From contig CAVVPN010000004.1 in assembly GCA_963750165.1 (NCBI GenBank), positions 640,001 through 704,000 on the forward strand: DNA of 64,000 nucleotides, written 5' to 3'. Made by a program: the position numbers and the translations under genes. This DNA comes from an uncultured Gemmataceae bacterium (lineage in GTDB: Bacteria; Planctomycetota; Planctomycetia; Gemmatales; Gemmataceae). Below, piece after piece: positions 7,455-64,000 of the stretch; position 1 is the stretch's first letter, and the number at the start of each line of letters is the position of its first letter. The notes beneath the pieces were generated by a model. That model was given only the letters and a program-made list of their open reading frames with translations, had not been told where the DNA came from and ran no database searches.

Positions 7455-8090
7455 TCACCCGTTCGTGTAGAACTCGCCCGACGACTCCAGGCCGAACCGG
7501 ATCGTTTGCAGGTTCAGCGACGAGGTCGCCCAGCCGGACACTTCGGCCGTACCCCCCTGGCGGTGCAGCAACCGGATGTAGTCCGCGGAGACCTGGTCGG
7601 TACGGTACTCCTGCCCGTCCACGAAGGCTGTGGCCAGCCCCGCCCGGCCGAGGCTCGTCACATCCGGTAGCACGTTGTTCACCTCCGCAGTGCTCGGAGT
7701 CCGGTTCAGCAGCAACTGATACAGGGCCTTGACGTAGTTGGTGTTCGCGTTCGTGCCGCCGATCAGCGCGTTGGCGTGGCTGGCGAACTCAGCCGTGGCG
7801 AAGATCTGCGACAGCACCTGGTCCTCGGTCTGACCGGCGGCCAGCAGGTTCACCCAGGTTTGCTCCTCGCCGTTCTGCGCCTGGCGGCCCAGGTAGGTGA
7901 CATACCAACCGTCCACCAGATGCGTCCGGGCCTCGGTGGTGTGCTCGACCGCGGTGACGACGTTCAACAGCTGGTTCGTGCTGGGGTTCGTGGGCAGGGT
8001 GTTCGCCCAGGCGTTGAGTTCGCTGACCGTGCCCAGGCGGCCCAGCACGTCGAAGTACAGGGACTGGATGTAACGTTGGTTGGCGTTCAA
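7455..8090 (-). other. C-terminal DUF4214-type helical region (putative cell-surface anchor)
   Basis: Four Y..(V/L)L.R repeats (YIQSLYFDVLGRLG, WYVTYLGRQA, YVKALYQLLLNRTP, DYIRLLHRQG) with helix ends ATAEF, DGQEY and SSGEFY. Confidence 0.8.
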
Positions 8091-11000
8091 CGTCGTCGGC
8101 GGGAAGTTGAGCTTCTCGATGTTGGTGAACGCCACCGTGGTGCCGCCGGCACTGACGCTGCTGGGGCCGAAGCTGACGGGGTTGCCCTGGGCGTCGAAGG
8201 TGAGCGTGTCAGCGATCACCTGCGGCCCGCCATTGACGTTCACGGTCGTCACAGGCGACGGCACCACGCTGAAGGTGTTGTTGCTGGGGCCGCCTGTCAG
8301 GTTGACCGTGCCGATCCGCGTCAGGTTGAGCTGCATGCCGTCGGTGGTGCTCAACACCCCGGTACTCGATAGCGTGAAGGTCGTCACGTCCTTGGTGGCC
8401 GCCAGCGTGTCGTTGGCCGTGCCGGTGATGATACCCGTGCCGGTCCAGCCATCGACGGTGAAGGTGTTGCCGCCCTGCGTGTCCGTCAAGTTCGCGGTCT
8501 TGACGTTGGTCAGCGTCAGGGACATCTTGCTGCTGCTCAGGTTCGTGTTGCTGAGCGTGAAGCCGCCGGCCTTGCTGGCGATCACCGTGTCGGCCATCGT
8601 GCCGCTGTCGGTCAGGCTGCCGGTGCCGGTCCAGCCGCTGACCGTGAAGGTCCAGCTGCCCTGCGTGTCGGTCAGGGTGGCGGTCTTGACGTTGGTCAGT
8701 GTCAGGGACATCGTGCCGCTGCTCAGGTTCGTATCGCTCAGGGTGAAGCCGCCGGCCTTGCTGGCGACCACCGTGTCCGCCGTCGCGGCGCTGTCGGTCA
8801 GGCTGCCCGTGCCGGTCCAGCCGCCTACCGTGAAGGTGTTACCGCCCTGCGTGTCCGTCAAGTTCGCGGTCTTGACGTTGGTCAGCGTCAGGGACATCTT
8901 GCCGCTGCTCAGGTTCGTGTTGCTCAGGGTGAAGCCGCCGGCCTTGCTGGCGATCACCGTGTCGGCCGTCGCGGCGGTGTCGGTCAGGCTGCCGCCGCTC
9001 GTCCAGCCGCTGACGGTGAAGGTGTGTCCGCCGGCGGTCTCGGTCAGGTTGGCGGTGCCGATGCCGCTGAGGGCCAGGGTGAGGCCGGAGGTGTTGGTCA
9101 GGTTGGTGTTGGTCAGCGTGTAGTCACCGCCCGAACTCACGGTCACAGTGTCGGGCGTCGCGCCGGTGTTGCTCAGGCTGCCGCCGCCGGTCCAGCCGGT
9201 GACGGTAAAGGTGTTGCCGCCCTTCGTGTCGGTCAGGTTCGCCGTCTTGACGTTGGTCAGCGTCAGGGACATCGTGCCGCTGCTCAGGCTGGCGTTGGTC
9301 AGCGTGAAGCCACCGGCCTTGCTGGCGATCACCGTGTCCGCCGTCGCAGCGGTGTCGGTCAGGCTGCCGCCGCCGGTCCAGCTGCTGACGGTGAAGGTGT
9401 GGCCGCCGGCGGTCTCGGTGAGGTTGGCGGTGCCGACGCCGCTCAGCGTCAAATTGAGGCCGGTGGTGCTGGTCAGGCTGGTGTTGGTTAACGTGTAATC
9501 ACCGCCCGAACTCATGGTCACGGTGTCGGACGTTGCGCCAGTGTTACTCAGACTGCCAGTGTTGGTCCAACCGCTGACGGTGAAGGTGTTGCCGCCCTGC
9601 GTGTCGGTCAGGTTCGCCGTCTTGACGTTGGTCAGGGTCAGGGACATCGTGCCGCTGCTCAGGTTGGTGTTGCTCAGGGTGAAGCCACCCGCCTTGTTGG
9701 CGACCACCTTGTCCGCCGTCGCGGCAGTGTCGGTCAGACTGCCGACACCCGTCCAGCCACTGACGGTGAAGGTGTGGCTGCCGGCGGTCTCGGTGAGGTT
9801 GGCGGTGCTGATGCCGCTCAGCGCCAGATTGAGGCCGGTGGTGCTGGTCAGGTTGGTGTTGGTTAACGTGTAATCACCGCCCGAACTCATGGTCACGGTG
9901 TCGGGCGTTGCGCCAGTGTTACTCAGACTGCCAGTGTTGGTCCAGCCGGTGACGGTGAAGGTGTTGCCGCCCGCCGTGTCGGTCAGGTTGGCCGTCTTGA
10001 CGTTGGTCAATGTCAGCGACATCGTGCCGCTGCTCAGGCTGGCGTTGGTTAGCGTGAAGCCGCCCGCCGAGCTCGCGGCCACCGTGTCGGGCATCGCGGC
10101 GGTGTCGGTCAAGCTGCCGGTGCCGGTCCAGCCGCTGACGGTGAAGGTGTGGCCGCCCTGCGTGTCGGTCAGGGTGGCGGTCTTGACGTTGCTCAGCGTC
10201 AGCGACATCGTGCCGCTACTCAGGTTCGTGTCGCTCAGCGTGAAGCCGCCCGCCTTGCTGGCGAGCACCGTATCGGCCATTGCGGCACTGTCGGTCAGAC
10301 TGCCGGTGCCGGTCCAGCCGCTGACGGTGAAGGTGTGTCCGCCAGCGGTCTCGGTCAGGTTGGCGGTGCCGATGCCGCTGAGGGTCAGGTTGAGGCCGGT
10401 GGTGCTGGTCAGGCTGGTGTTGGTCAGCGTGTAGTCGCCGCCCGAACTCATGGTCACCGTGTCGGGCGTCGCCCCGCTGTCGGTCAGGCTGCCGCTGCCG
10501 GTCCAGCCGCTGACGGTGAAGGTGTTGCCGCCCGCCGTGTCGGTCAGGTTCGCGGTGCTGAACGGCCCCACCAGGGTCAGCGACAGGCCGTCGGTGCTGG
10601 TCAGACTGGTGTTGGTCAGCGTGTAGCCCGCCGCCTTGCTGCTCACGAGGATGTCGGGCACAACCGGGCTGCTGGAGGCGTTGACGAGTGTGATCGCCCC
10701 CGTCCAGGTGCTCACGTCAAAGGTGTGGCCGCCCGCCGCGTCCGTGATGTTGGCCGTGCCGAAGGCGCCCACCAGCGTCAGCGACATGCCGTCTGTGCTG
10801 GTGATGCTGCCGTTGCCGAGCGTGAAGCCGGCTGGCTTGTTGGCCACGATGGTGTCCGGGACAACTGGGTTGCTGGTGGTGTTGGTCAGCTTGCCGCCGT
10901 GCGTCCAGCCGCTCACGTCGAAGGTGTTGCCGCCCGCCGTGTCGGTCAGGTTGGCCGTCGTGAACGGCCCGCTCAGTGTCACGCCCATCCCGTCCGTGCT

Positions 11001-14000
11001 GCTCAGGCTGGTGTTGGTCAGCGTGTAGCCCGCCGCCTTGACGGCCGTCACCTTGTCCGCCGGGTTGCTCGGCGTGTTGGCCAGGGTGCCGCCGTGCGTC
11101 CAGCCGCTCACGTCGAAGGTGTTGCCGCCCTGCGTGTCGGTCAGGTTCGCCTTGTTGAACAGGCCAACCAGTGCGAGGGTGAGTCCGTCGCTGGCGGTCA
11201 GGCTGGTGTTGCCCAGCGTGAAGCCGGCCGCCTTGACGGCCACCACGGTGTCGCCCACCTGCGGCAGGCTCGCGTTGGCCAGGGTGCCGCCGGCTGTCCA
11301 ACCGCTCACGTCGAAGGTCTGGTTGCCGGCCGTGTCCGCCAGGTTGGCGGTGGCGAATGCCCCCACCAGGGTCATCGACAGGCCGCTGCTGCTGCTCAGC
11401 TTCGTGTTGGTCAGCGTGAAGCCGGCCGCGCCCGCCGCCCGGACCGTGCTGCCGGTCACGTTGCTCGTCAGCGTGCCGGTGCCCGTCCAGAGGTCGGTGC
11501 CCGCGGCGTTGTTCAGCGTGAAGGTGTGGGCGTGCGTGGCGCCCAGCAGGTTCGCCACCGTGATGCCGCTCAGCGTCATCGACATCCCTGGCGTCTGGGC
11601 CACGCCTTCCAGCGTGGACAGGCTGCCGTTGGCCAGGAAGAAGTCGGCGTCGCGGTTCACCACCACGGTGCCGGCGACCTGGTAGCCGGTCAGGCTGCCG
11701 GTGCCGGTCCAGTGGTCGCTGCCGTTGGCGTTGTCCAGCGTGAAGGTGTGCGGATGGCTGATGACCGTCAGGTTGGCGGCGCCAACGTTGCTCAGGCCAA
11801 TGTTCAGGCCGTCCGTCGCGCTCAGGCTGCCGTTGACCAGCGTGAAGTTGGCGTCGCGCGTCGAGATGACCGTGGCGCTGGCGCCGGCGCCGGTGGCGCT
11901 CAGGGTGCCGCCGCCGGTCCACCTGTCCGGCGTCGGGGCATTGGGTGTGTCGAGCGTGATGGTGTGCGGGTTGTTGATGACCGCGAGGTTGGCGGCGCCG
12001 ATGTTACTCAGCGTCACCGCCAGGCCGTCGCTGGCGGACAGGCTGCCGTTGACCAGCGTGAAGTTGGCGTCGCGCGTCGTCACCACGGTGCCGCTGGCGC
12101 CGGTGCCGCTGGCCGCCAGGATACCGCTGCCAGTCCACTTGTCCGGCGTGGCGGCGTTTACCGTGTCGAGCGTGATGGTGTGGGCGGCGTTGATGACGGT
12201 CAGGTTGGCCGTGTTGATGGCCGACAGGGTCATGTTCAGGCCGTCGCTGGCGGACAGCTTGCCGTTGACCAGCGTGAAGTTGGCGTCGCGCGTCGAGATG
12301 ACGGTGCCGCCGCCGCTGCCGGTGATGCTGCCGGTGCCGGTCCACCTGTCCGGCGTGCTGCCCACAACCGTCTCCAGCGCGAAGTTGTGCGGGCTGACCA
12401 GCGACGCCAGGTTGGCGACGCCGAAGCCGGTCAGCGTCATCGAGGTGCCGTCGCTCAGGTTCAGGCTGCCGCTGGCCAGGGTGAAGTCGGCGTTGCGCGT
12501 GACGTTCAGCGTGCCGCTGCCGCTGGCGTTGACCAGGTGGCCGGTGCCGGTCCAGTGATCGTTGCCCGCGTCCAGCGTGAAGGTGTGAGCGGTCGTCAGG
12601 GCGGTCAGGTTGGCGACCTTGAGGTTGCCGTTGCTGTTGTTCAACGTCATGGCCATGCCATCGCTGGTGGACAGGCTGCCGCTGGCGATCGTGAAGTCAG
12701 CGTTGCGCGTGACGTTGATGGTGCCGGTGCCGCCGGTGCTGGTCAGCGTGCCGGTACCGGTCCAGTGATCGCTGCCGGCGGTGTTGTCCAGGTTGAACAC
12801 GTGGGCCGTCGTGGTCGCCGTCAGGTTGGCGATGGTGATGCCGCTCAGGGTCAGCGACAGGCCGTCGCTGGTGTTCAGGCTGCCGTTGGCCAGCGTGAAG
12901 TCGGCGTTGCGCGTCGAGTTGATGGTGCCGGCGACGCCCGAGGCGGTCAGTGCCCCGTGGCCGGTCCACTTGCCGTTCGCGTTGTCCAGGTTGAAGGCGT
13001 GGGCCGCCGTGTTGACCGTCAGGTTGGCGGTGCCGAAGCCGGCCAGGCTCATCGACAGGCCATCGCTGGCGGCCAGGCTGGTGTTGGTCAGCGTGAAGTC
13101 GGCGTTCTTGGTGGCGGCGACGGTGCCGCTGCCGACGTTGTTGCTCAGCGAACCAGTGCCCGTCCAGGTGCCGCCCGCGTTGCTCAGGTTGAACGTGTGG
13201 GCGTTGTTGATCGCCGACAGGTTGGCCACGTTGATGTTGCCGTTGGTGTTGTTCAGCGTCAGGGCCATGCCATCGGTGCTGCTCAGCGTGGTGTTGGTCA
13301 GCGTGAAGTCGGCGTCCCGGCTGGCGACCAGGGTGCCGGTGCCGCCGTTGCTGGTCAGGGTGCCGGTGCCGGTCCAGTGACTGGTGCCGTTGATGTTATC
13401 GAGCTTGAACGTGTGCGGCTGGCTCAGGGCGGTCAGGTTCGCCACCGTGATGCCGGCCAGGCTGGCCGAGAGGCCATCGGTCGTGTTGATGCTGCTGTTG
13501 GACAGCGTGAAGTCGGCGTTCTTGGACAAAATCAGCTTGTCCGGGTTGCCGGCGAGGCCGGCGCCGGCCAGCGCCGCGCCGTAGGTCCAGCCGCTCAGGT
13601 CGAAGTTGTTGCCGCCGCCGGTGGCCGTCAGGATGGCCATGTTGAAGCCGCCGGTGCCGGTCAGGCTCAGCGTCTTCGAGGTCGTGGCGGTGGCGATGGT
13701 CAACTGGGCCGGTGTCGTCGCGTTGGTCAGCGTGTAGCTGTTGGGGCCGACGGCCTGCACGGCGTCCGGCGTGGCCGTGGTGCCCGGCGTGGTGCCGCTG
13801 GCGTTGGTCAGCGTGCCGGTGCCGGACCAGCTGTTGAGCGCGAAGGTGTGGCCGCCGGTGGTGTCGGTCAGGTTGGCCGTGGTGATGCCGGACAGCGTGA
13901 AGGTCTGGCCGTTGTCGCTGCGGACCAGCTGAGTGTTGCTCAGCGTGAAGTTGGCCGGGCCGGAGTCCACCACGGTGCCGGCGGTGTCGGTCAGCGTGCC

Positions 14001-17000
14001 CAGGCTCGACCAGCCGCTCACATCGAAGGTGGTGTTGCTGCCGCTCAGCTGGGCGGCGTTGACGTTGCTCAGGGTGATGGTCGCTGCCCCCTGGCTGGTG
14101 CCGCCGCCGCTCGGCGTACCCGAACTGGTCAGACCGGAGTTGGTCAGCGTGTACTGCGTCACCGGGGCGTTGGCCACGATGGTGTTGACCACGGTGCCGG
14201 CGCCGCCGATGAACGAGATGCCGCCGCCGGTCGCCGGCAGGTTGTACGAGGTCGTCGTGTCGGTCAGCGTGGTGTTGGTCGCCGCCCCGCCCAGCACCTT
14301 GAAGAACTCCAGCTGTGCCGCCGCCAGCGACTGGATGGTCACGGTGTTGGTGGTCGGCGTGTTCGGGTTGGCGTTGTCGCCGAACAGCAGGTCCACCTCC
14401 TGATCGTTGCCGAAGAAGTCCGTGAAGGGCAGGCCGCCGATGGTGCCAGCCAGCCGGTTAAAGTGGCCGTCGGTCAGGCCGGCGCCGGTGATGGCGTTCT
14501 GGTCCGCCTGCGACAGACTGGCCAGGGCTGGGCTATCGACAGTCACCACGTCCGTGTTGCTTGGCAGTGAAATAATGACGGGCTGGGTTGCCAGCTGGTT
14601 GAAGAAGTACTGGGACATGGGTGTGGGATCCTGACTGTTCGTAAAGTTGATGGTCTGCGAGCGGCCGCCGCTGACGACCGTGATCCGGCCGCTGCTGGGG
14701 TTCGTCGCACTGGGCGAGTAAGTCACACTGCCGCCGCCGTTGATGACGAGCGCGTGGTGGCCGCTCGGGCCGCCGTTGAAGTTGATAATCGGGGTCACCA
14801 GGCCGTAGGTGTTGTCAATCGTGAGGACGTTGTCGCCGCCCAGGCCCTGCACGGTGATCGAACCGATGGCGGTGCTGACGCCGTCGAACAGCACGACACC
14901 GTTCATGCTCAGCTCCACCAGGTTGCCGCGCATCCGCACCGTCCACTGCGTCACCGCGGCCGGCGCCATGTCGGAGGAGTTGTTGTCCAGCAGCACGTTC
15001 AGCAACCCGCCCGCGGCCGTCACCTGGTTGAAGCCGGTGTAGCCCAGGGGCTGGTAGGCGGTGGAGCCGGGCACCGTCAGCGTCGCCTGGCCGGGGCCGG
15101 TGATGTGCAGCAGGTTCGCCGGCAGGTTCGACAGGTCCAGGCTCAGGATCTTCGGGACGCCGGTGGGGTTCGGCAGCGTGCTGGCGTCGATCTCGGTGAC
15201 GGTGCCGGGGCTCGGGGCCGCCACGCCCACCGGCGTGGCGCCGTAGACCGGGGCCAGCTGCACGTTCATCAGATCGACCGACTGCAATTTGGCGGTCCAG
15301 CCGATCACCTGGCCGGACGCCGACAGCAGGTTCGGCAGCAGGCGGAACAGCGTCTGTGGCGTCGGGCTGGTGATGGTCGCGGTGTGGGTGCCGCCGGCGA
15401 CGCCCTGGTCCTCGATGAGCACCACACCGCCGCCGCTGAGCACGATGTTGTACAGGTCGTTGCTGCTGCCGCCCTGGAGCAGCAGGGTGCCGAGCAGGCC
15501 GTTCGTCGGCCCCACCGGGTTGAAGGTCCGGCCGTCCACGTTGAAGGTCGCCGTGCCGCCGTTGGCCGCGTTGCCCTGGAACACGGTGGTGCTGCCGGCC
15601 AGGGTTGTCTTGATGCCGAAGGTGTCGTTGCCCGTGGCGGAGCCCACCAGCGTGATGCCGCTGCCGGTGGCCGGGTCGAAGAAGGCGCCGCCGGGAGCCG
15701 CCGTGTAGTAGATCGCCGCCGGGGCGAAGCCGGTGACCTGCTGATACACCTGGCCGGCCACCGTGGCGGTGGTTTGCAGCACGTTCGGGCTGCCGGGGCC
15801 GCCGTGGTTGTTGATGACCAGGCGGTTGCTGCTGCCGCTGCCACCGACGAGCGTCAGGGTGCCGAGGATCAGGTGCAGGTCATAGTCCCCTGTCGGCACC
15901 TTGTTGGCATCGACGGCGTTCGAGGCGACGTTGAAGGTGACGCTGCCGTTGCCGCCCCGGATCAAGGTGGTGCTGCCGGCCAGCGTGCTGCGGACGTTGA
16001 AGCTGTCGCCGCCCAGCGCCGCGCCCTTCAGCAGCACGCCGTCGTTGGTTGTGCCGTCCAGGAAGGCGCCGCCAGTGGCCGTGTAGTCGATCGGTGCCGG
16101 CGCGAAGCCGGTGATCTCCTGGACGCTCTGCGTCTGGATGACGGCGCCGCCCTGTGTCGAGTTGGCCGTGACCGTGAAGGCGGTGCCGTCCAGGTGCGTC
16201 AGGATGACCGTGTTGCCGGTGACGAAGGCGGTGAAGTTCGCGGTGCCGGCCAGTTCCGCCGCCAGGTGCTGGGCCACGTCGGCGCCGGTGTCGCCGGTCT
16301 GCACCGTGTAGGACACCGGCCCGGCCAGGGTCGTGGTGTTGGTGCCGTCCTTCAACGTCACGGTCCAGGTGTCGCCCACGACCACGGCTGCCGGGATGGT
16401 CAGCGTCTGGGTCATCGGACTGGCGTCCTGCGTGACCGGGCTGGTGGCGTAGCCGCCGTAGTTGCTGACGATCAGCCGGTTGGCCGGGGCGCTGCCGCCG
16501 TTGATGACCAGTCGGCCCTGCACGCCGAGCAGGTTGCCATCGCCAGGCGCCGTCGAGGACACCGTGATGTTGCTGTTGCCGACGCCGTTCTGGATCGTGG
16601 TCACCGTGTTGGCGTGGGTGCCCTGGACATTGAGGTTGTCGCCGGCCACGCCGAGCAGCAGGTTGACGGCGCCGAAGTCGTAGTAGTTGATGCCGGTGGT
16701 GCGCGTGTCCAGCGTCAGGGTGCCGGCCAGTTGCGTCGTGTCGATGTCGGCCGGCGTGATGACCTCGGTGGCGTTGCCGTTCACCACGCTGAACTGGCCG
16801 CGGAAGGTGATGAAGAAGACGTTGTCGTACTTGGTCACCGCGAAATTGTCGGTGAACGGCAGCGCCGGGTTGGTGTTGTTCGGGTTCAGGATCGGGTCGA
16901 GGGCGTTGAACAAATCCTGGGCGCTGGCGTTGTAGGCGACGGCGCCGGTGGTTTCGATGGAGTCCGTGTTCGGGTTCAGCAGCTTGATGGCGAAGCTGCC

Positions 17001-20000
17001 GCCGGTGGCGTTGACGGTCAGTGTCTCCACGAGGTTCTGCGGCGGCGCCGTGGTGCCGTTCTGCACGACGGTGGTGGTCACGCTGACGGGGTTGCCCGGC
17101 CCGGCCACCAGGCCGGTCAGCGGCAGCAGGTCGCCGGCGCTGCTCGACTCGGCCCACTGCAACGGAGCGAAGTCGCGGCCGGCGCGGGTGTTGGTGAACG
17201 TGATGGTGAAGGTCACGTTCTTGACTGTGCGGTCCTCGGTGACGGCGATGTCGGTGAAGCCGTACAGCGTCGCCAGCTTCTGTTGCAGCACGGCGGCCGA
17301 GTCGGTGTAGTTCAGGGTCACGGTCTGGTCGCCGCCAAGGACGGCGCCCGCGGCGGCCGGCGTCAGCGCAATCGTGAAGGCCGCCCCGTCCAGCCGGCTG
17401 ATGACGATGGTGTTGCCGGTGACGAACGCCGAGAAGTTCAGAGCTTTGCCCAGCCCGGCCGCCAGTTGCTGGGCGACGACGGCGGGTGTATCGCCGGCCT
17501 GCACCGTGTAGGCCACCGGCCCGGCCAGCGTCGTGGTGCCCGAACCGTCCCGCAGCGTTACGGTCCAGGTGCTGCCGGCGTTGACGGCCGGCGGCAGCAG
17601 GATGGTCTGCGTCAGGCCGGTGACCACCGTGGCGGCGCCCGGTGTCAGGCTGACCGTGTAGTCCACGGCGGTCTGCTCGATGGCGACGACGGTGTTGCCC
17701 TTGGCCACGGCCGCGATCCCCGTGAGGCCGTTCAGTGCGGCGGCCAGGCCCTGGGCCACGGCCGGCAGGTCGTCGCCGGTTTCCGCGACATAGCTGACGG
17801 TGCCGCCCGGCGTCAGCGTCAGCGTCCAGGTGGCGCCCGCGGTCACCGTGCCCTGCAGCGTGATGACCTTGGTGATGCCCGCGACCGGTGCCGTCAGCTT
17901 GTAGGTGCCGCCGTTCGCCTGCACCACCAGCGTCTGCACCTCGGGCACCGCCGGCATGTTCAGGCCGGTGAGCGTGGTGCCGGTCAGCGTGCCGGTGTAG
18001 TGCGTCTGGCTGCCGCTGTCATCGATGTTGAGCACGTCCGCGGGGTTGCCGCCGACCACCGTCAGCAGCGAGGAAATCTGGTCGATCTGCGGCGTCGCGC
18101 TGCTGACGTTGACCGTGCTGGCGCCGGTGCCGGCGTTGATGGTCGTGTGGCCGGAGATGGTGTTGACGTTGAAGGTGTTCTGGCCGCCGCCGCCGTAAAC
18201 GTTGGTCGCGCCCGTGCTGGTCGATTGCACGTTGAAGGTGTTGTTGCCGGTGCCCAGGTAGACGTTTAACACGTCGATGCCCTGGTAGGTGATGCCGCCG
18301 TTGAAGGCGGTGCCGGCGATCACCGTGTCGCCGCCCATGCCCAGGCCGGTGATCTGCGTTGCGGTCAGCGTGCCCGTGTCGTTGGACGGGCTGTGGTTGT
18401 TGAAGACGTTCAGCGTGTTGGTCGATTGCGACTCCGCCACGGTCGTGTTCGGGTTGAACGGAGCGTAGTAGTACAGGGTGCCCGGCGTCGCGGTCGTGGT
18501 GGTCGTCGGCCATGGCGCCGCGAAGGTCACCTCCGTGCCGGAGATGACCGGCGTGAAGTCGCTGTGGAACTGGCCCTTCAGTGCCAGGATCACCGAGGCG
18601 ATGGTGTCGGTGCTCTGGACCTGATACGTCGCCGTTTCGGGCGTGTTGCCGGGATACTGCAGACGGAAGACCCAGGTGGAGCCGACGGCCCCCGGCGTCG
18701 CCAGCACAATCGCGGCCTGCGTCCATTGCACGCTGCTCCCGGCGGCATACAGCGATGCCAGTGTCGGGTCGCCGGAGAAGATGACGCCGCCCTGCGTCGG
18801 GCTGCCGGCGGGCGCCTCGGTGATGTCGAAGTGGCCGGCGCTGATGGCCGCGCCGTTCTTGCGGGTGATGAGCAGATACGCCTCGCCCAGCAGGCCCGTG
18901 CGCTGCTCGACGTTGTACGGCGTGGCCGTGGCGCCGAGCACCGCCGCCAGGTCCGCCGCCACCAGCGACACCACGTTCCGGTTCGGGGCCACCGTCACCG
19001 AGTAGGTCGTGCCGTCCAGCGTGAGCGCCCAGACCTCGCCCACGGCCGGCGTGCCGGTCAGTTGCAGGATCAGTGTCCGCCACTGGAGCGTCGCGCTGAC
19101 GAAGTTGTCGTAGTTGTTGCCGGTCGTCGGATTCTGCACCGGCGTGCCGATGAAGCGGGCAGCGCTGTCCGACGGGGCCACGCCGTTCTGCGTGAAGCTG
19201 ACGGTGAAGGGCACCTGCACGCCGTTGACCGTCTTGGCGCCGACGGAGAGGATGTCGCCCGAGGTCGAGGCCACCGGCAACTGCACGTTCGTGGCCGGGC
19301 CGTTCAGGAACGTGATCGAGTACGAGTAGCTGTTCATGCGCGGGTCGAACCCGGGTCGCTGGCCGGCGTCCTGGCTGACGAACGTGGCGTTCGGGTCGGT
19401 GATGGTCGCCCGGCCGCGGATGGCGAACGACAGCGTGATCGGGTTCAGGCTCGCCAGGCTGACGGTCACGGTGACGCCCGACGCCGTGGCGTTGACCAGG
19501 CCGCTCTGCATTTGCAGCGCCAGGCCGGCCGCGATGTCCGCCAGCTGGTCGTTCGGCTTGACCGTGTAGCTGAACGTCGGCGAACCGCTGAGCGACGGAA
19601 TGGTGGTCGTCCAGACCTCGCCCACGGCCGGCGTGCCGCCGAGCGTCAGCAGGGCCGTCGCCGGGGTCGGGTAGGTGACAGTGCCCGTGCCCTGCGTCAC
19701 CGAGCCGACCGTGGCCACCGAGCCGTCGGGCACCAGGAAGTTCGTCTCGCCCGGCAGCAGCACCGGGTTGTTCAGGAACTGATCCTGGCCCACGAGCACG
19801 CCGCCGTCGATGGTCAGCGGGCCGCGGATGCTGTTGACGCGCTGATCGGGCGCCGGGAACACCAGGGCGTCACTGCCCTCGACAACGTTGTACGGGTCGT
19901 AGGCGGCCACGGTCACGGTCTGGGCCAAGTTCCAGTTGGCGTGCGTGAACACCAGTTGCGGCGTCAGCGTCGCACCGCCCAGGCTGTCCGGCGAGATGCC

Positions 20001-52800: not shown

Positions 52801-55800
52801 CCTTGAGGTTCGTGCCGTCAATCGCCAGGGCCGACACGTTCTCGTTCGCCAGCGTGCCCTGGAAGGTGACGGTGTAGGTGTTGCCCGCCAGCGTCACCGC
52901 GACGTTGCCGTTGCCGATGCTCGACAGGCCGGTCAGGGCGGTCTGCACCTGGGCGGCGGTCGCGTTGTAGGCCAGGGCCGCGGTGGTCTGGCCGTTGAAG
53001 CTCAGCGTGAAGGTGCCGCCGGTGGCGACCACAGTCACCGTCTGCACCTCGCTGGTGCCGGCGTTGCCCGGCGTGGTGACGGCTACCGTCGCGGTCAGGC
53101 CGCCGGACAGGTTGGTGCCATCGGCGGTCAGCGTCGGGGCGGTGCCGCCCGCGAAGGTCACGGTGTAGGTGTTGCCGATGGTGATGCTCTGCGTCACCGG
53201 CGCGGTCAGCGTGTTGAACTGCGCCTGCAGCGTGCCGCCCAGGGTGACGCCCGGCACGTTCACCGCCACCGTGCCGCCGATGCTGCCGTCCAGGCCGGCG
53301 GACGTGATCAGCAGGTTGCCGCGGCCGTTGGTGATCGACACCACCGGCGTGCTGCCGCCCAGCGTCAGCGCCGCGTTCGCCACCGACAACTTCACCAGGC
53401 GGTTGCCGCTGCTGTCGAGCGTCTGCTCGAAGGTGAAGTCGCCGCTCAGCGACTGCTGCAACAGCGTCAGCATGACACCGGTGCCGGCGACGCGCACGTA
53501 CGGCCCGGCCGGCAGGTTGAACGTCTGGTTGACGCTACCCTGCGTCACCGTGATGGCGTTCTGGTTGCTGGTGAACAGGGACTGCACGGCGCTGAGCACG
53601 TCGGTGTTGCTGGCCCGCACGGAGATTGGGGCGGTGGTCTGATTGTTGGCAGTCAGCGTGAAGGTGCCGCCGCTGGCGACCACGGAGACGATGTACTGGT
53701 TCGCCCCGGCGCCCGGCGTCACGGTCAGCATCTGCAGGCCGACGGCGCCGGTGCCGCTGGCGGTCGGCGCCGCGGTGCCGGCCGGCAGCGTGATGGTGTA
53801 GGTGTTGCCGACCGGGAACGTCACCTGCACCGGCTGGCCGGTCTGGTTCAGGGCCAGGCTGAAGTTGCCGCCAAGGGTGACGCCCGGCACGTTGACGTTG
53901 AGCGTGCCGTTCAGGCTGCCGACCAGGCCCTGGGCCGTCAGGTTCAGGAAGCCGACGCCGCCGGTCAGGCTGACGAAGGTGTGCGTGCCGTCGCCGAGGC
54001 TGATGCTGAGGTTGGCCACCGTGACGCTCACGACCTTGTTGCCGTTGCCGTCGGTGGACTGCTGGAAGCTCAGATCCGCCGTGAACTGCTGGCCGAGCAG
54101 ATTCACCGCCAACCCGGTGCCGGCGATGCGCACGTACGGCCCGGCCGGCAGGTTCAGGCTGAGCGTCGTCGTGCCGACCGTCAGCGACTGGTTGACCGCC
54201 ACCATGCCGGTGTTGACCTGCACGGTCAGGTTCGCCAGGCTCAGGCCCGAGATGGCGACGCTGCCGCTGACCTGGCCCGCCAGGCCGGAACTGCTGATGA
54301 CGAAGAAGCCCTGGCCTTGCGTCAGGCTCGCCACCGGGGTCGTGCCGGCGGTGAAGGTCAGCGACACGTTGTTGCCGCCGAACATCAACTGCTTCGTTGG
54401 CGGCGCTGCCGAGTTGGCCGCGGCGGGCAGCGTCACCTGCTGGAAGGTGAAATCGCCGGTCAGTGTCTGGCCGAGCACATTCAGGCTCAGGCCGTTGGCC
54501 TGGATCAGCAGCAGCCCGGACTGGATGGTGATATTCGCATTCGTAGCCGGGTTCGGCAGCGTCACGGCGCCGGCGGTCGAGTTGAGTTCGAGCAGCAGGT
54601 TGCCGAGCGTCAGGTTGGCGAAGCCGCTGACGTTGAGCGTGCCCGAGGCGCTGAGAACGGCGGCGAGGCCGGCGTTGCTCGAGCTGCACCGAACCGTTGA
54701 TGGCTGTCAGGCTGACGTTGTTCGAGCTGTCGCCCAGCGTCAGGGTGCCGTTGGCGACCGTCGCCAGGAAGGTGCCGGCCTGGGCGCCCTGCGTGAAGGT
54801 GAAGTCGCCCGTCAGCGTCTGACCGAGGATGCTCAGGCTCAGGCCGGTGCCCTTGAACAGGGCGTAACTGCCGCCGGACTGGGCCGGGGCCGGGACGGTG
54901 ACGGCCGCGTTGAACGGGTCGGTCCAGGCGGTGGTGCCGTTGTTGAACTGCACCGTCGCCATGCCGGAGAACGAGGCGGCGGACAGGCCGAGCAACTGCA
55001 CCGTGCCCGTGGCGTAAACGCCATAGTGGCCGTTGGCCAGTTGCTCCACGTCCACCGTGGCGTTCGCCAGCAGGACGCCGCGGGCGGCCGGGTTCATGGC
55101 GCCGCCGGGCAGCGTCGCCGGGCCCTGGCCGAGGAAGATGCTCAGGTTGGTGCCGTGGAAGGCGCTGTGGCCGTTGACGTTGCTGAACGTCACCGAGCCC
55201 TCGATGGTCGCGAACGGCGGATTGCCCAGGCTGATGTTGCCCGAGCCGGTGATCTGGAACACGTCGCTGCCGTCCGGGAACACGATCGACAGCGTCTGGC
55301 CGCCGACGGTAATCATCTCGTTAACCGGCAGCTTGGAGTTGTTCATCTGCAGGCCGATGCTGGCGTTGGCGCTGACGCCGCCGCCGCTGGCCGAGGCGGT
55401 GCCCGACAGGAAGCCGGCCAGACCGCCGGAGCCCGGCACCGTCGGGTCGGGCGGCAGCAGCACGAAGGCGCCCTGGCCGCTGCCCAGGTGCTGGCCGTTG
55501 AACGTCAGGCTGACGTTGGTCGCGGCGACGCGCGTCACCGTCCGCGTCACCGGGTTGGCGGTGCCGGCGCCGGAAACCGTGTCGGTTTGCTGGTCGAGGA
55601 AGAAGTTGCCGGTGATGGCGACGCCCGCGCCGCCGCCGGAGCCGAGCGTCAACGTTGCGCCGTCGGCCTCGACGCGCACGAACGGCCCGGCCGGGATGTC
55701 CACTTCCATCGTCTGGCCTGGCAGCGTGTTGGCCGGGATGGTCGCGTTCACCATCGACGTGTTGAGCGCGATGTCCAGGGTAGTCGCGGCCAGTGTGATG

Positions 55801-58800: not shown

Positions 58801-61800
58801 CCGGTCGCCAGCGGGTTGAGGTCGCCGTTGGCCAGCAGGGCCGGGCCCTGGCCGAGGAAGATGCTCAGGTGATCGCCCGCGAACACCTGCACTGACTGAC
58901 CGTTGACCGTCTGGCTGCTGAAGCTGACGTTGCCCTGCAGCGTCACGAAGTTGCCGATGTTGATCGTCAGGTTCGACACCGACACCGCGAACAGGTTGCC
59001 CTCGCTGGCGCCGAAGTTGATCGCGATGCTCTGGCCGTTGACCACGATCGTCTCGTTGACGGCCCCCGGCGTCGTGTTGATGCGGAGCAGGATGTTGCCG
59101 CCCGCCGACACGCCGCCGCCGCTAACCGTCGCGGTGCCGGACAGCACGCCCGCGATGCCCGTCGTGTTGACGCCTTGCAGACTCGTCGTGATCTCGACCA
59201 GGCCGCCCTGTCCGTTCGTCAGCGACACCGAGCCGCCGCTGACCGTGACGTGCGCCAGGCCAATGCTGAGGACCTGGGTGCCGTTCGGGTCCGTCTGCTG
59301 TTGGAGGAACAGGTCGCCCGTCAGCGTGTAGGTCGTGCCGCCGACCGAGATGGTCGCGTTCAGGTTCGTCACCATCACCCGCAGGAACGGCCCGGCCGGC
59401 AGCGTCAGCATCTGGCCGCTGACGAACGGCTCGGAAACCGCTTGTGAGGTGGTGTTGACCTGGATGCTGATGTTGCCGGTAATCGAGGCGAAGCCCGGCA
59501 GGCTCAGCGTCGCGTTGGTGCTGAAGGAGCCAGCGATGCCCTGCGGGTAAACGATCAACTCGCCGTTGCCATCGGTAATGTTCACGAGGGGCGTGCCGCC
59601 GACGGTTAGCTGGACGTGCAGGTTGGCCACCGTCGCCTTGACCACCGCGGCGCCCGTCGAGTTGGTGCCCTTCTGGAAGGTGAAGTCGCCGCTGATCTGC
59701 TGGCCGGCGACGGTCAGCGTCACGCCGGTGCCCTGGATTTCCACATACGGCCCCATCGGCACCGACAGCGTCACCGGCGTCATGGTGCCGGGGACGGTGA
59801 AGCTGGCGTTGACCGCGTTGCCGGTGGTGTTGACCAGCACGCTGAGCGTGGCGCTCAGGCTGACGCCCGGGACACTGACGCTCACGGTGCCGCTGCCCTG
59901 GCCGGCGATGCCCGCGGGGGTCAGCACGAAGTACGCCGAGCCGTTGCTGAGCGTCACCAGACCGCCGCCGAGCGACACGTTCAGGTTGGCGACGCTGATG
60001 CGGACTTCCGTCTGGTGCGTGGTCGCGTCCGTCGTCTGATCGAAGCCGAAGTCGCCCGTCAGCGACTGGCCGAGCACCATCACCGTCAGGCCCGTGGCGG
60101 CGAAGCGCACGAACGGCCCGGCCGGCACGTTCAGCACCACCGAACCCGTGCCCACCGGGATCGTCTCGTTGACCGCCTGGCTCGTCTGGTTGATTTGCAG
60201 CGTCAGGTTGCCCATCACCTGCACGCCCGGGATGTTGACCGTCAGCGTGCCGGACAGCTGGCCGGCGACGCCCGCGGCGGTCAACACCAGGCTGCCCTGG
60301 CCGTTCGTCAGTGAGACGTAAGGGTGAATCACCTGCACCACGGCGCCGGTGCTGTCCGTCTCGGCGTTCAGCCGGCCGCTGCTGGTCAGTGTCAGCACGG
60401 TGTCCGTGACCGCCGCGACAGTGTAGGTGCCGTTGTCCGCGCTGGTGCCGGTGACCAGGATGGTATTGCCGACCTGGAAGCCGTCGCTGTTCCAGCTGCC
60501 GGCGCTGCGGGTGACGGTGTCGCCGCCAGTCAGGGGGGCGAACGTCAGCGCCGGACTGCCGGTCGCCTGGGCGCCGCCGCTGGTGTCGCCGAGCACGAAG
60601 TTCACGTTGCTGGCGGCGACGAGGACCACCGGGTTGGCGTTGCCGTCGGTCATCTTCTCGAAGGTGAAGTTGCCCGTCACGGCCTGGCCGGCGACTGCCA
60701 GCTGAATGTTGGTGCCGGCCACTTGCAGGTACGGCCCGGCCGGCAGCATCAGCGTCACCGCCACGCCCGCGACCGTGAAGGTCTGGTTGACCGCAGCCGT
60801 TGTCGTGTTGATCTGCAGGCTGAACTGGCCGCTGAAGTTCGCCGCGGGGATCGACACCGTCGCGCTCGAGCTGGCCCGCCAGGCCGGCGGCGCTCGCCAC
60901 GAAGCTCCCCTGACCCTGCGACACCACCACCAGGTTCGTGCCGCCGGACGCGAACGTCAGGCCCACGTTTGTGGCCGCCACGCTGATGAGCGAACTGCCG
61001 TCGGGCTGCGTCAGTTTCTCGAAGGCGAAGTTGCCCGTCAGTGTCTGGCCGAGGATGCCGAGGCTGACGTTCTGGCCCGAGACGTGGACGAAGGGCCCGG
61101 CCGGCACGTTAATCGCCGTGCTGCTGCCCGCCGGCATGAAGCTGACCGCCGCCGACGTGGTGTTGAGCGCCAGGTCGAACTGGCCGCTGAACGTCACCTG
61201 CGGGATGTTGACCGCCACGCTGGCGCTGAAGTCGCCGGCCAGGCCGGCGCTGGTCACCTGCAGCGCGCCGCTGCCCTGCGTCACCGACACAATGGGGGTG
61301 CTGCCGGAGCCCAGCGTCAGGCCGACGTTGCTGCCCTGCACCACCAGCGACTGGAACTGGCCCTGGGCGGTCGTCGTCTTCGTGAAGCTGAAGTCGCCCG
61401 TCAACGACTGGCCGAGCACCGAGATCGTCAGGGCGGTCGCGGTGAAGGTATCGACCTGGTCCGTGGTGCTGAAGCTGAGCAGGACGTTCTGCGTCGTGCC
61501 CGGGATGCTCAGCGTCTGGTTGACCGTCTGGCCGCTGTCATTGACGCGGACGTGGGCGGTGCCGCTGACCGTCACGCCGGTGACGCCGAGCAGCTGCACC
61601 GTGCCGGTCGCGTCCAGGGCGTAGGTCGCAGTGCCGCCGCTGGTGAACTTGATGACGCCGATGTTGGCGTTGGCCAGGTACAGGCCCGTGGCGCCCGGGT
61701 TGATGTCGCCGTTGTCCAGCGTTGCCGGGCCCTGGCCCAGGAAGATGCTCAGTCCGGTGCCCGCGAACTCCTGCACCGCCACGCCGTTCAGCGTCGTGTT

Positions 61801-64000
61801 GGTGAAGGACAGGCTGCCGCCGATGGTGATGAAGTTGTCGATGTTGAGCGTCAGGTTGGCGCCATAGAACTGCGTGAACGCACTGCCGCCCGAGGCCACC
61901 TCGTTCGGCCCGAACAGGATGTTGACGCTGTGGCCGCCGATGGCGATGGTCTCGTCCACGGCGTTCGGCGTCGAGTTGATGCGGAAACCGATGTCGCCGC
62001 CGGCACTGAAGCCCGGCACACTGGCCGGCGGCGTCATCACCATCCCGGACAGGAAGCCGGCGACGCCCGCGGTGCTGATGATGAAGCCGCCCTGGCCGTT
62101 GCCCAGGACGTTGCTGCCGCTGACCGCCAGCGTGATGCCCGTGGCGGCAAAGCGCGTCACCGTGCCCTGCCCCGCCACCGTCGTCTGGTCGAAGCTGAAC
62201 GAACCCATCAGCGTCGCCGCGCTGCCGACCGTCAGCGACGCGCCAATCGCGGTCACGCGGAAGAACGGCCCCATCGGCTCGACCAGTGGCTGGCTGGCGC
62301 CGGTGATCGTCTCGTTGACGGCGACCGGCATCGTGTTCACGTCGATGACAACGCTGGTGGCGGTCAGCGTCACGCCCGGCACCGCGAAGCTCGCCGTCAC
62401 CGCGAAGTTGGCCGCGATGCCCTGCGCCGTCAGCAGGAAGGTGCCGCCGCCGTTCGTCACGTTCACGAAGGTGGTGCCGCCGGCCGCCAGCACCAGCATC
62501 AGGCCGTTCACCGAGAACGTCACCACCTTGCTGCCGTCGGTCGCCGTGGTCTGCACGACGGTGAAGGTGCCGGTGGGGGTCAGACCGATGGTCTGGCCGG
62601 CGATGCTCAGGCTCACGCCGGTGCCGGAGACGCGGACGTAGTTCGGGGCCGTGATCGTGTTCACGTCGATGGTGAACGCGCCGGCCAGCACCTGCACGCT
62701 CGGCAAATTGACGGCCAGCGTCGCGGTGATGCTGCCCTGGATGCCGTTGCTCTGGACCGTCAACATGCCCGAACCGGTGGCCTGGACCAGCGTGTTGGTG
62801 CCGTCGCCCAGGCTCAGCACCACGTTGCTGGCGGTGACCATCAGGACATGATTGACGTTGTCCTCGCTGAAGCTGAAGTCGCCGCTCAGCGACTGGCCGG
62901 CGGCCGTCAGCATCAGCCCGGTGCCGCCGAAGCGGTTGCTGTTGGCCGGGACGCTCAGCGTCTGCGTCACGCCATTGACCGTGATGCTGCGGTTGATGTC
63001 CGTCGTGAAGGTGCTGCGCTGGAAGCTCAGCGTGCCGGACAGGCCCAGGTGCTGGATGCCGACCAGTTGCACGCTGCCGCCGGCCTGCACCGCGATTCCG
63101 CCGGGGGCGATCAGCATCGCCAGGCTGGCGCCGCTGACCTGCACGCCGACGTTGTTGGCCCCGACGAAGATGCTGACGCCGGTGGCCGCGATCAGCACTT
63201 CGGTGAAGTCGTCCGCGGTGCCGAGCACACCGTCGGGGCCGGGGTTGGTCGATTGCTGGATCGCGAAGCTGCCGGTCAGCGTCACGCCGGCGACCATCAG
63301 GCTGACGTTGTCGGCGCCGAAGCGGCTGGTGCCGGCCGGCACGGTCAGCGGCGTCGAGGTGGCGCCGATGGTGACCGTGTGCGCGGCGCTGGTGGTGGTG
63401 TTGCGCTGGGCGTGCAGGTTGCCCATGAAGGTTACGCCGCTGATGCCGACGACGCTGGCGGCGCCGCTGGCGTCGAAGTCGTAGGTGCCGTCGGGCTCAA
63501 TCACGGCCAGCAGGGTGCCGCCGGTCACCTGCACGCCCAGCGTCAGCGTGCCGCCACTCATCTGGCCGGCGGCGAAGCTGACGTTCGTGGCGGAGATGCT
63601 GATCTCGTTGGTCGTCGCGTTCTTCGCGATGCCGAAGCTGCCGCTCAGCGTGGCGACCGGCGTCGTCAGCGTCAGCACGGTGCCAGTCCTGGTGCTGATG
63701 GTGTAACTGGTGCCGTTGGTGGTGTCGGCGTTGACGTCGATAGTGCCGCTCAGGCCCAGGTCGCTCAGGCCAGTCAGGGCGACCGTGCCCTCGGCGGTCA
63801 GCGTGAACGAGCCGGCCGGGTGGACGCTCACCAGGTAAACGCTGGCGTTCAGGCTGGCGTTGGTCAGCGACAGGCCGACGCCGCTAGCCCCGATGAAGGC
63901 GCTGACGCCCGACGCGGTGATGGTCAGCATCGTCGGGTGGCCCTGGGTGTCGAAGGTCACCTGGAAGCCGAACATCCCGCTCAGGGCGACGAAGCTCTGG
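7455..64000 (-). CDS. Giant multi-repeat cell-surface protein (adhesin-like), at least 18,847 aa when three 1-nt frame breaks are joined; 5' end lies beyond the window
   Basis: The ORFs 59122-63975, 53535-60857, 34778-54565 and 7455-34781 share composition and repeat families. Each of the first three turns into out-of-frame sequence exactly where the next frame continues the same repeat (~60867, ~54680, ~34814). The frame is open to the right edge (QSFVALSGMFGFQ). Codon sum: 1044+2062+6622+9119. Confidence 0.85.
8300..14200 (-). repeat. About 29 tandem 60-70 aa repeats (beta-helix-like stalk)
   Basis: Consensus FTLTNTSLSSTDGLSLTLSGITTANLTDTAGGHTFTVSGWTGTGSLTD.....DTVVASKAGG, counted by the conserved W. 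DNA copies are near-identical in 8440-10500. Confidence 0.9.
16180..28460 (-). repeat. About 27 dispersed or tandem 85-100 aa G.TW modules
   Basis: Consensus TLTGTPAVGETWTLTLDG.TYSYTV..GDTLA.VA.GLAAAI......A...G..LTV, i.e. beta strands plus one amphipathic helix. Confidence 0.85.
25990..26480 (-). other. PPC-like (pre-peptidase C-terminal) beta-sandwich domain
   Basis: HDSIYTAQNL...DYYSFTIT...IFDM...SRLELLDQAGNLIA...DDRLTYTF..PATYYLVV...NYVLQVS. Confidence 0.7.
28500..29260 (-). other. Two Calx-beta-like domains
   Basis: YTVVLTQAP...LIFDRTNWFIPQTVTVTAPDD and YALVLTKQPTTNV...FSPANWDVPVIITVMAV. Confidence 0.65.
29410..31540 (-). repeat. Degenerate RTX/hemolysin-type GGxGxD repeats
   Basis: GGSGNDVF, GGTGNELY, GGTGNDTY, GGQGDSDF, GGDGTNTF, AQAGNDIF and GGLGSDIF. 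Confidence 0.75.
33075..34235 (-). repeat. Five tandem ~75-aa TITR..GSW..DGF modules (single copies also at ~34860-35095 and ~60330-60565)
   Basis: Consensus PTLTF....DTITRSAGSW..DGF..GQ.I.VQGT..NDG.YTI..VT.T.LTL.....L.NE. Confidence 0.85.
34814..54679 (-). CDS. Giant protein segment 3 (6622 aa; ORF track 34778-54565)
   Basis: The frame is already meaningful upstream of the called GTG (SNAGLAAVLSASGTLNVSG...). Contains PAGP beta repeats, an EVQ-domain array, Ig-like domains and RTX-like repeats. Confidence 0.9.
36900..39330 (-). repeat. Second degenerate RTX-like block
   Basis: GGSGNNIF, GGAGTDNI, GGGGSDIL, GGQGSDTF, GSGNDNI, GGTGNDNF, GGAGNNLF and GAGGNDNI. Confidence 0.75.
42040..46790 (-). 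repeat. Six bacterial Ig-like domains (two at ~46000-46790, four at ~42040-43570)
   Basis: Consensus ATL.NP..G......LN..GYIDVTF......D..S......PT.V.GTTYRY.FTG....G.VTVNFIAG.FKD..GN....T.TFTV. Confidence 0.75.
50450..53810 (-). repeat. Array of about 10 ~100-aa EVQ modules
   Basis: Consensus SEVQTVTVVAGGGTFTLSFNGQTTAALAYNATAAQVQTALAALSNIGTGNVAVT..GNTYTITFQGTLAN. Dispersed copies near 45580, 31900, 21735, 17945 and 17035. Confidence 0.9.
54681..60866 (-). CDS. Giant protein segment 2 (2062 aa; in-frame part of ORF 53535-60857)
   Basis: About 16 PAGP beta repeats. The translation becomes Arg/Pro/Gln-rich out-of-frame sequence after ...INGSVQL at 54681. Confidence 0.88.
60868..64000 (-). CDS. 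Giant protein segment 1 (at least 1044 aa, 5'-truncated; in-frame part of ORF 59122-63975)
   Basis: Same beta repeats. Out of frame after ...AGLAGQL at 60868. No stop codon between 63975 and the window end. Confidence 0.88.

Follow-up and report, generated by a model that had tools for sequence, protein, structure and literature searches.

A giant leader-bearing surface protein of an uncultured Gemmataceae bacterium, read across five probable assembly errors and predicted to carry a long hydrophobic beta-sheet

Giant surface genes are well known in planctomycetes (PMC12673574, PMC5177795, PMC11573180). The protein described here has its closest published analogue in Cag_663 of Chlorobium chlorochromatii, which measures 36,806 amino acids (aa); its gene is reported to be transcribed over the whole length, and its product to have been detected and observed at the partner cell (bioRxiv 10.64898/2026.03.19.712371). 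A 64,000-nucleotide stretch from an uncultured Gemmataceae bacterium (the window; positions 640001-704000 of contig CAVVPN010000004.1, hereafter C4, within a 9.6-Mb genome of 12 contigs that is 93% complete) was analyzed. It contains part of a minus-strand gene, very probably intact, for a leader-bearing giant surface protein built on an unnamed repeat family. As described in the preprint, Cag_663 has in common with this protein an N-terminal leader (LEPRxLL-type in Cag_663), a central hemolysin-like part and a repetitive C-terminal shaft, and its first ~13,350 aa are predicted to form a twisted beta-sheet that has a hydrophobic cleft and from which phage-like domains protrude, as is also predicted here. 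Cag_663 alone has a haemagglutinin beta-helix of 12,000-14,000 aa, an MtxA-like end and adjacent TolC/SapC genes, whereas in the present giant the stalk measures ~2,000 aa, the chain ends in a DUF4214 region and no secretion gene was found among the 15 neighbours scanned.

Other described systems share single traits with the giant. It is 2.2-2.5 times longer than the largest planctomycete surface proteins given an exact size in the cited texts (10,566 aa; 36,239 bp; PMC8567305, PMC5177795), and ~twice as large as the biggest planctomycete genes named in the texts consulted. The giants of Tuwongella (PMC8567305) and Fuerstia (PMC5177795) share the leader and the large size, and they are described as having discrete Ig, cadherin and integrin-beta domains, whereas half of the chain is predicted here to be continuous sheet. 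The beta-belt of ApoB100 (PMC11839476, PDB 9coo) is a long, single-layer, amphipathic antiparallel sheet with inserts between strands, as here; the giant differs in its strict 124-aa periodicity, in its strand number (~570 vs. 120) and in its hairpin and phage-like inserts, and lipid binding is established for ApoB100 alone. The antiparallel beta-helix tubules of Omnitrophota (bioRxiv 10.1101/2023.11.21.568195) are likewise predicted to be a continuous antiparallel sheet with external paired strands, over ~1,500 aa as against ~13,000 aa here. Omnitrophota giants are reported to reach 85,804 and 147,155 aa and to carry enzyme, SecA or peptidase domains and transmembrane (TM) segments, none of which were found in the giant; with these proteins and Cag_663 known, its size is no record. 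Proteins of the DUF6603 class have a segment similar by embedding to the conserved core of the giant, and the PF20248 hidden Markov model (HMM) of that class is silent. In VPS13, ATG2, TamB and AsmA, repeated beta-sheet modules are fused into a long hydrophobic groove. From such bridge-like lipid-transfer proteins the giant differs in having six strands and a hairpin per repeat, no family match, no N-terminal membrane anchor and a predicted export, as against their intracellular or periplasmic location. New here are the size, the case for artefactual breaks, the accordion-like orthologue, the likeness in shape to the ApoB belt, the couplings across the groove and the resemblance to Cag_663.

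The gene and its five frame switches

Four minus-strand open reading frames (ORFs) lie in the window (7455-35012, 34778-54706, 53535-60956 and 59122 to the edge). The initial annotation had joined them, at these coordinates, into one giant surface protein concealed by frame breaks, and this joining was borne out: a codon-model Viterbi path gave three one-base switches in the window, and the joined frame there has exactly 18,847 codons. That annotation had also proposed extending the contig to find the start and any signal. The start was located at C4:727178, 23 kb outside the window edge, with a planctomycete leader at the true N-terminus, and the whole gene (C4:647455-727178, minus strand, ~80 kb) comprises six ORFs, or path segments, separated by five one-base frame switches (C4:725057, 715988, 700868, 694685 and 674810). 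The joined chain (X at breaks) has ~26,575 aa and 2.67 MDa, without internal stop; an earlier figure approaching 2 MDa was right as to giant size but an underestimate. Thr, Gly, Ala and Val are abundant in it, and Cys is all but absent. The switches at C4:725057 and C4:715988 lie outside the window, and the gene features inside it are as follows.

7455..64000, minus strand: in-window part of the giant gene (18,847 codons), from ORFs and the codon-model path
60856..60880, minus strand: frame switch (+1) at ~60868, with GCGC and CTCGAG motifs; orthologue unbroken there
54673..54697, minus strand: frame switch (+1) at ~54685, with CTCGAG motif; orthologue unbroken there
34798..34822, minus strand: frame switch (-1) at ~34810, with GCGC motif; no spanning alignment, homologues hold both flanks in one frame

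Judged from the sequence, the locus is very probably one intact gene, and the five breaks are most likely assembly errors that arose as sequencing slips. A genome-wide screen started from 31,583 overlapping ORF pairs, of which 480 passed a coding-score filter and 341 were left as frameshift candidates after natural overlaps had been removed. GCGC occurred within 12 nt of the switch in 259 of these 341 (76%), compared with 23.8% of random windows. CTCGAG is very rare in this genome (0.08 per kb); of the candidate sites, 5 of the 151 insertion-type ones had it and none of the 190 deletion-type ones did (0.13% at random). At the giant, one or the other motif was present at all five joins in a post hoc comparison, compared with 14.5% of random windows within the gene. 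The detector found two of the five joins, so the genome rate of ~1 per 28 kb is a minimum, with which five in 80 kb would agree. Twenty of the 179 mid-sized candidates were sampled and both halves scanned against Pfam. A single Pfam domain was split in register in six (ATP synthase, carboxyl transferase, AdoHcyase, sigma-54 activator, amidohydrolase and DUF4139), and two others carried a pair of domains from a single known protein, one case being an insertion sequence (IS)-type gene that may shift naturally. The remainder had tetratricopeptide repeats on both sides (1), a family on one side (5) or no family (6). DNA methylation may be the cause of the GCGC and CTCGAG error motifs: the genome encodes two C5 cytosine methyltransferases (L064 and L065). 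Nanopore errors have been tied to DNA modification, mainly as substitutions, in the part of PMC11610603 that bears on this, where GCGC is unmentioned.

Comparison with related sequences points the same way. Repeats span four of the five joins, with 26-67 spanning alignments within the protein and 230-928 in other proteins; the initial annotation had placed every join inside a repeat confirmed by paralogues, which does not hold for the join at 34810. The closest orthologue, P0196, comes from genome G521, a different genus of this family, and most of its tiles are 45-69% identical. It is continuous across joins 60868 and 54685 and is broken at two other places, so that the homologues split at the same points which the initial annotation had set against a single gene were not found. 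One G521 ORF carries sequence from both sides of join 34810 down to a closely similar C-terminal motif, and P0207, P0203, P0216 and G061 also place the flanks of this join in one frame. In an Actinomycetota genome a homologue is a collinear, unbroken frame of 11,496 aa that likewise contains both flanks. The ORF downstream of join 34810 has no leader, and its first start codon falls within a beta-rich stretch. Recent stalk repeats, which lie downstream of all breaks, had ratios of nonsynonymous to synonymous substitution (dN/dS) of 0.28-0.58 in five overlapping comparisons.

The WD40 gene just upstream of the giant (L002:12666-15149) lies in two adjacent ORFs and is possibly another break. Seven other stretches read ~9,800-14,100 codons stop-free if 1-7 frame switches are allowed (C3:3184700-3219100, C3:2532900-2566405, C3:3402150-3444477, C3:1680400-1719950, C4:230000-259480, C9:1-38450 and C11:2064515-2099600). 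Most of their switches fall at GCGC or CTCGAG motifs and most of the stretches start with a planctomycete leader, and some of the switches close to the ends may mark genuine borders between genes. Motif-linked indels would conceal several further proteins of ~10,000 aa or more in this genome, and any split-gene or pseudogene call in this assembly needs caution.

Domain order and predicted fold

The whole chain was scanned as 27 tiles against Pfam and NCBIfam. The sole Pfam match over cut-off was DUF4214, and nothing in NCBIfam exceeded its cut-off. From N to C the order is leader, repeat array, six inserts of ~115 aa with the conserved core, RTX-like block 1, TITR/GGEPV region, RTX-like block 2, GxTW middle, stalk and DUF4214 region. 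The order in the initial annotation was right in outline and its DUF4214 end scored over cut-off; its RTX assignment is sub-threshold, and its Calx and PPC labels were dropped, as neither had a Pfam or NCBIfam match.

C4:727044-727091, minus strand: planctomycete leader, LExLExRxxP-like (aa ~29-44), by motif; the first 120 aa hold neither a hydrophobic signal nor a TM segment
47009..64000, minus strand: in-window part of the 124-aa 'PAGP' repeat array, by profile; the array runs on to C4:725906 (aa 424-13,390)
50372..53707, minus strand: ten 'EVQ' inserts (15 in the whole chain), phage tail-like (phrog_10909, E = 1.7e-19; phrog_2839, E = 2.5e-13)
45980..46783, minus strand: two beta-rich inserts of ~115 aa, labelled 'Ig-like' in the initial annotation, without family match
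43589..45331, minus strand: conserved core A (aa ~13,950-14,530), by homologue alignment and predicted model
42032-43561, minus strand: four further beta-rich inserts of ~115 aa, of the same type
39569..42031, minus strand: core B (aa 15,050-15,870), beta-rich and aromatic, closing the sheet region; collinear in homologues
36869..39541, minus strand: RTX-like block 1, with GGxGxD motifs; PF00353 under cut-off
31920..35581, minus strand: TITR/GGEPV region with 6 of 10 TITR modules (phrog_1236, E = 6e-24), including join 34810
29280..31742, minus strand: RTX-like block 2, a paralogue of block 1 by self-comparison
15330..29282, minus strand: middle region with most of 25 'GxTW' modules (phrog_165, E = 7e-8)
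8205..14207, minus strand: stalk of 30 tandem repeats of 62-74 aa, Thr/Gly/Asn-rich with evenly spaced Trp
7458..8057, minus strand: DUF4214 region, three matched stretches (Pfam)

The initial annotation had missed a continuous amphipathic sheet, which is predicted to make up half of the chain in place of beads on a string. Copies of the 124-aa repeat in aa 424-13,390 number 93 at ≥20 bits and 89 at ≥40 bits (~95 in all). No match to this repeat was found in Pfam, NCBIfam, PHROGs or PDB sequences, a search of the PDB with the repeat profile included, and no published description was found in an open-access-weighted literature search that did not extend to the supplements of the Cag_663 preprint. 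[quoted passage not shown] Coevolution, which is independent of the model (1,357, then 2,131 repeat copies), gave six long strands, each antiparallel with the next, and paired each repeat's last strand with the first strand of the next one; a short hairpin lies packed across the sheet's outer face. On the inner face, 80% of positions are hydrophobic, 17% are Gly and 0.4% are charged; on the outer face, 59% are Ser/Thr/Asn/Gln. Weak couplings also run, in one direction, from the bottom of one strand to the top of the strand three on (2 of 12 pairs at z > 4, compared with 0 of 21 in the reverse direction), and they suggest that the modelled sheet is a twisted, partly closed cleft.

In its predicted model (pLDDT 82.8), core A is a long meander that carries a helical insert and continues the sheet of the array, and repeats and core together are predicted to form a single continuous antiparallel beta-meander with an uncharged hydrophobic face. 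Core A is 42-60% identical across phyla in the best ~50 of 53 matches. Language-model embedding placed the core close to DUF6603 clusters (0.93; 178/256 features; 25/30 matches), while the PF20248 (DUF6603) HMM gave no match in this genome or in the 48 core sequences aligned; an open-access-weighted literature search on DUF6603 returned no paper, and a PDB sequence search with the core profile gave nothing significant. Two planctomycete genomes (L033-L036; G200, G133) encode proteins of 9,725 and ≥10,603 aa with a LEPRTLF leader, the core, few recognizable repeats and an unrelated C-terminal shaft, which suggests that the core has been shuffled onto different stalks. In G520, of the same family, there are three separate core copies, in frames of 3,162, 4,981 and 6,436 aa.

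In fold searches, the lipid belt of ApoB100 (PDB 9coo) matched the repeat model with Z = 14.2 and a root-mean-square deviation (rmsd) of 6.8 Å over 248 residues at 8% identity, and was the sole match below 10 Å among the 50 matches listed. The other searches with the repeat model (Foldseek PDB, VIA wide, BFVD) returned mostly beta-barrels, with rmsd mostly 12-21 Å, or nothing significant. These matches were taken to reflect a common meander topology, and a barrel fold for the repeat was rejected. Searches with the core model returned barrels, with ApoB also among the Foldseek matches. VPS13, ATG2 and TamB chains were not among the matches listed, which does not exclude them, and no Pfam or PDB sequence match was found to the ApoB/large lipid transfer family or a lipovitellin-type N-terminal domain. 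The ApoB100 belt is described as 120 strands over 61 nm, or 0.51 nm per strand (PMC11839476); with this rise, the ~570 strands here would extend up to ~290 nm.

Sequence-level similarity of the other modules is to phage proteins: the EVQ inserts resemble accessory domains of phage major tail and tail sheath proteins, the TITR modules a phage head protein family (phrog_1236) and the GxTW modules a tail-sheath accessory domain. The stalk repeats are a putative beta-helix. PDB sequence searches with the stalk and an RTX-like block gave nothing significant. The RTX evidence consists of one mid-chain PF00353 match (17.8 bits, cut-off 23) and eight GGxGxD motifs, none of them within the last 7,300 aa. 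At the C-terminus, PF13946 (DUF4214) scored 59.9 bits against a cut-off of 23.2. No peptidase family exceeded its cut-off, and no Rfam family was found in the window. The segment at aa ~200-330, before the array (L002:11190-11580), is kept in the orthologue; without a family match, it resembles the beta-helix cap motif common in planctomycete autotransporter-like proteins.

Relatives, export and genome neighbourhood

A search of 1.84 billion representatives with the repeat profile gave 1,693 clusters (50% identity) at E ≤ 0.001. The named members, from searches that covered proteins of up to 11,589 aa, are almost without exception partial records; they belong to Verrucomicrobiota, Actinomycetota, Planctomycetota, Rokubacteria, an Olavius-associated proteobacterium and Beta-/Gammaproteobacteria. 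The core was found in 11 of 201 same-family genomes and 3 of 401 genomes of the phylum, and the repeat in 5 of 401; these counts include this genome, and many of the relatives' genomes are fragmented. The family is cross-phylum and patchy and includes monoderms. Such a spread does not fit a general planctomycete stalk, so the initial annotation's candidate for a planctomycete fibre or stalk was given up in its general form, and monoderm homologues do not fit a bridge between inner and outer membrane. In the G521 orthologue (~10,250 aa) the array is shorter by ~8,000-9,000 aa and the middle region, which is mostly missing, by ~7,200 aa; length thus varies in an accordion-like way through module gain or loss, and repeat number differs ~threefold between orthologues. 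Weak matches in G011 and G004 were rejected as homologues, as the repeat profile does not match and the G011 match is a TITR insert. Many homologues (P0203, P0199, P0208 and others) have PF01839 and PF13517 repeats (source names VCBS/FG-GAP) that are absent from the giant, and P0218 appears to begin with an ordinary hydrophobic signal peptide, not a leader.

The leader of the giant is conserved in the G521 orthologue and is of the kind reported for Tuwongella surface proteins (LxLExLExRxxP; PMC8567305). Genome-wide, the leader pattern occurs in 92 ORFs and DUF4214 matches number 100, both often at opposite ends of one protein, which suggests that leader plus DUF4214 is a much-used export-and-anchor design in this genome. 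Adjacent secretion genes, for which the initial annotation had proposed to look, were not found: no secretion or transporter gene was found among the 15 neighbours scanned (3 of the 15 without family), nor TolC/SapC genes adjoining the giant. The neighbours include WD40, DUF1559, LeuA-like, DUF1501, esterase and AAA genes; together with the leader, the DUF1501 and DUF1559 genes are marks of a planctomycete host. For the type I HlyD exporter (TIGR01843), 0 of 19 matches exceeded the cut-off in this genome, and there are six secretin matches. Neither of the marks of an RTX protein or type I secretion substrate, a PF00353 array and an HlyD exporter, was found over cut-off. At window positions 2170-4013, a gene pair for an AAA_21 ATPase and a DUF4276 protein lies in a low-GC stretch (0.60) and is possibly a toxin-antitoxin or defence module.

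Proposed function and alternatives

The giant is tentatively read as an exported, cell-surface-tethered, long-reach contact filament, a grooved ribbon that would engage lipid or other hydrophobic surfaces; a probability of about 0.45 was assigned to this reading, in which the fold is predicted and export route, orientation and ligand are inferred. Export would follow the leader-dependent planctomycete route and not a neighbouring type I system. DUF4214 would keep the C-terminus on the cell's own surface, so that anchoring would be C-terminal; an RTX-DUF4214 protein of Pseudomonas putida is reported to bind O-antigen, and the same source calls DUF4214 function 'poorly characterised' (bioRxiv 10.64898/2026.09.02.748959). 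The stalk of 30 repeats, the RTX-like blocks and the spacer modules would push the remainder outward, and the N-terminal half would be a twisted ribbon of ~150-300 nm, curled into a partly closed hydrophobic cleft with phage-like domains sitting in loops of the sheet. The cleft may grip lipid or another hydrophobic surface, such as another cell's membrane or particles. The whole would be a contact appendage of the Cag_663 type, with its length tuned by repeat addition.

Several points weigh against this reading. The case for a single gene comes from the assembled sequence, the motif test at the joins is post hoc, two of the five CTCGAG sites of the genome-wide screen are the giant's own joins, and join 34810 had zero spanning homologue or paralogue alignments, also with a larger protein set. 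The leader had no match at E ≤ 1 to PF07595 or the NCBIfam leader models; none of the genome's 12 weak PF07595 matches reached the cut-off, so this model fits the lineage poorly. Inner and outer positions were assigned by the analyst from the same alignment, which makes the statistics on the two faces partly circular. The couplings across the groove have ranks of only ~98-224 and are weak, and AlphaFold2 curvature is unreliable when lipid is left out, as the ApoB paper states for its own models (PMC11839476). The ApoB100 match is a likeness of shape at its 8% identity, without sequence kinship, and Cag_663 was compared by description and not by sequence.

Among the alternatives, an intact, exported but purely structural rod is rather unlikely. 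Its hydrophobic face would be buried, curled shut or packed copy-on-copy, and binding would be left to the phage-like inserts or the N-terminal cap. The couplings that link opposite edges of the inner face would fit a rod, as would inserts that look like virion-surface accessory domains, the ~threefold, spacer-like variation in repeat number and the cleft-to-cleft dimers modelled for Cag_663 (bioRxiv 10.64898/2026.03.19.712371). Against a rod, the sheet most similar in shape is open and binds lipid, the 17% Gly of the inner face leaves room for a cavity, and the core is conserved across phyla at 42-60%, beyond the needs of a spacer. The same unbroken, uncharged hydrophobic face across ~95 repeats and core, together with the ApoB100 belt match (Z 14.2, 6.8 Å over 248 residues) and the appearance of ApoB among the Foldseek matches of the core model, would also suit a groove that carries lipid. 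The giant would then correspond, outside the cell, to bridge-like lipid-transfer proteins, or would form an ApoB-like belt round a vesicle or droplet, and would move or package hydrophobic molecules between the cell and another cell or a substrate. This is quite unlikely: no AsmA, TamB or Chorein family match was found, the N-terminal membrane anchor is absent, none of the scanned neighbours is a transporter or secretion gene, and monoderm Actinomycetota homologues exclude an inner-to-outer-membrane role.

Real breaks, whether in a decaying gene or between two proteins split at 34810, are improbable. Giant dispensable surface genes readily decay, and no homologue spans that join; set against this are 26,575 codons without in-frame stop, genome-wide error motifs at all joins, a downstream ORF without leader whose first start codon lies within a beta-rich stretch, and the five relatives (G521, P0207, P0203, P0216 and G061) that hold both sides in one frame. 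A single translated chain that is then cut into several mature proteins, as has been suggested for peptidase-bearing Omnitrophota giants, is very improbable with no peptidase family over cut-off in the 27 tiles.

The giant brings to light a repeat family that escapes annotation, without a match in Pfam, NCBIfam, PHROGs or PDB sequences. It is doubtful that the giant is the largest copy seen here of an unrecognized, cross-phylum class of extracellular lipid-handling filaments, with a groove of up to ~300 nm, five times the ApoB100 belt. If this were true, the filament would carry lipids and other hydrophobic molecules between the cell and either a neighbour or a substrate, or would enclose a lipid particle the size of a vesicle, and the number of repeats would determine its length. 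The repeat is small and well predicted and should express easily, so that lipid holding, self-pairing and cell gripping are directly testable, and the outcome may bear on the unexplained N-terminal half of Cag_663.

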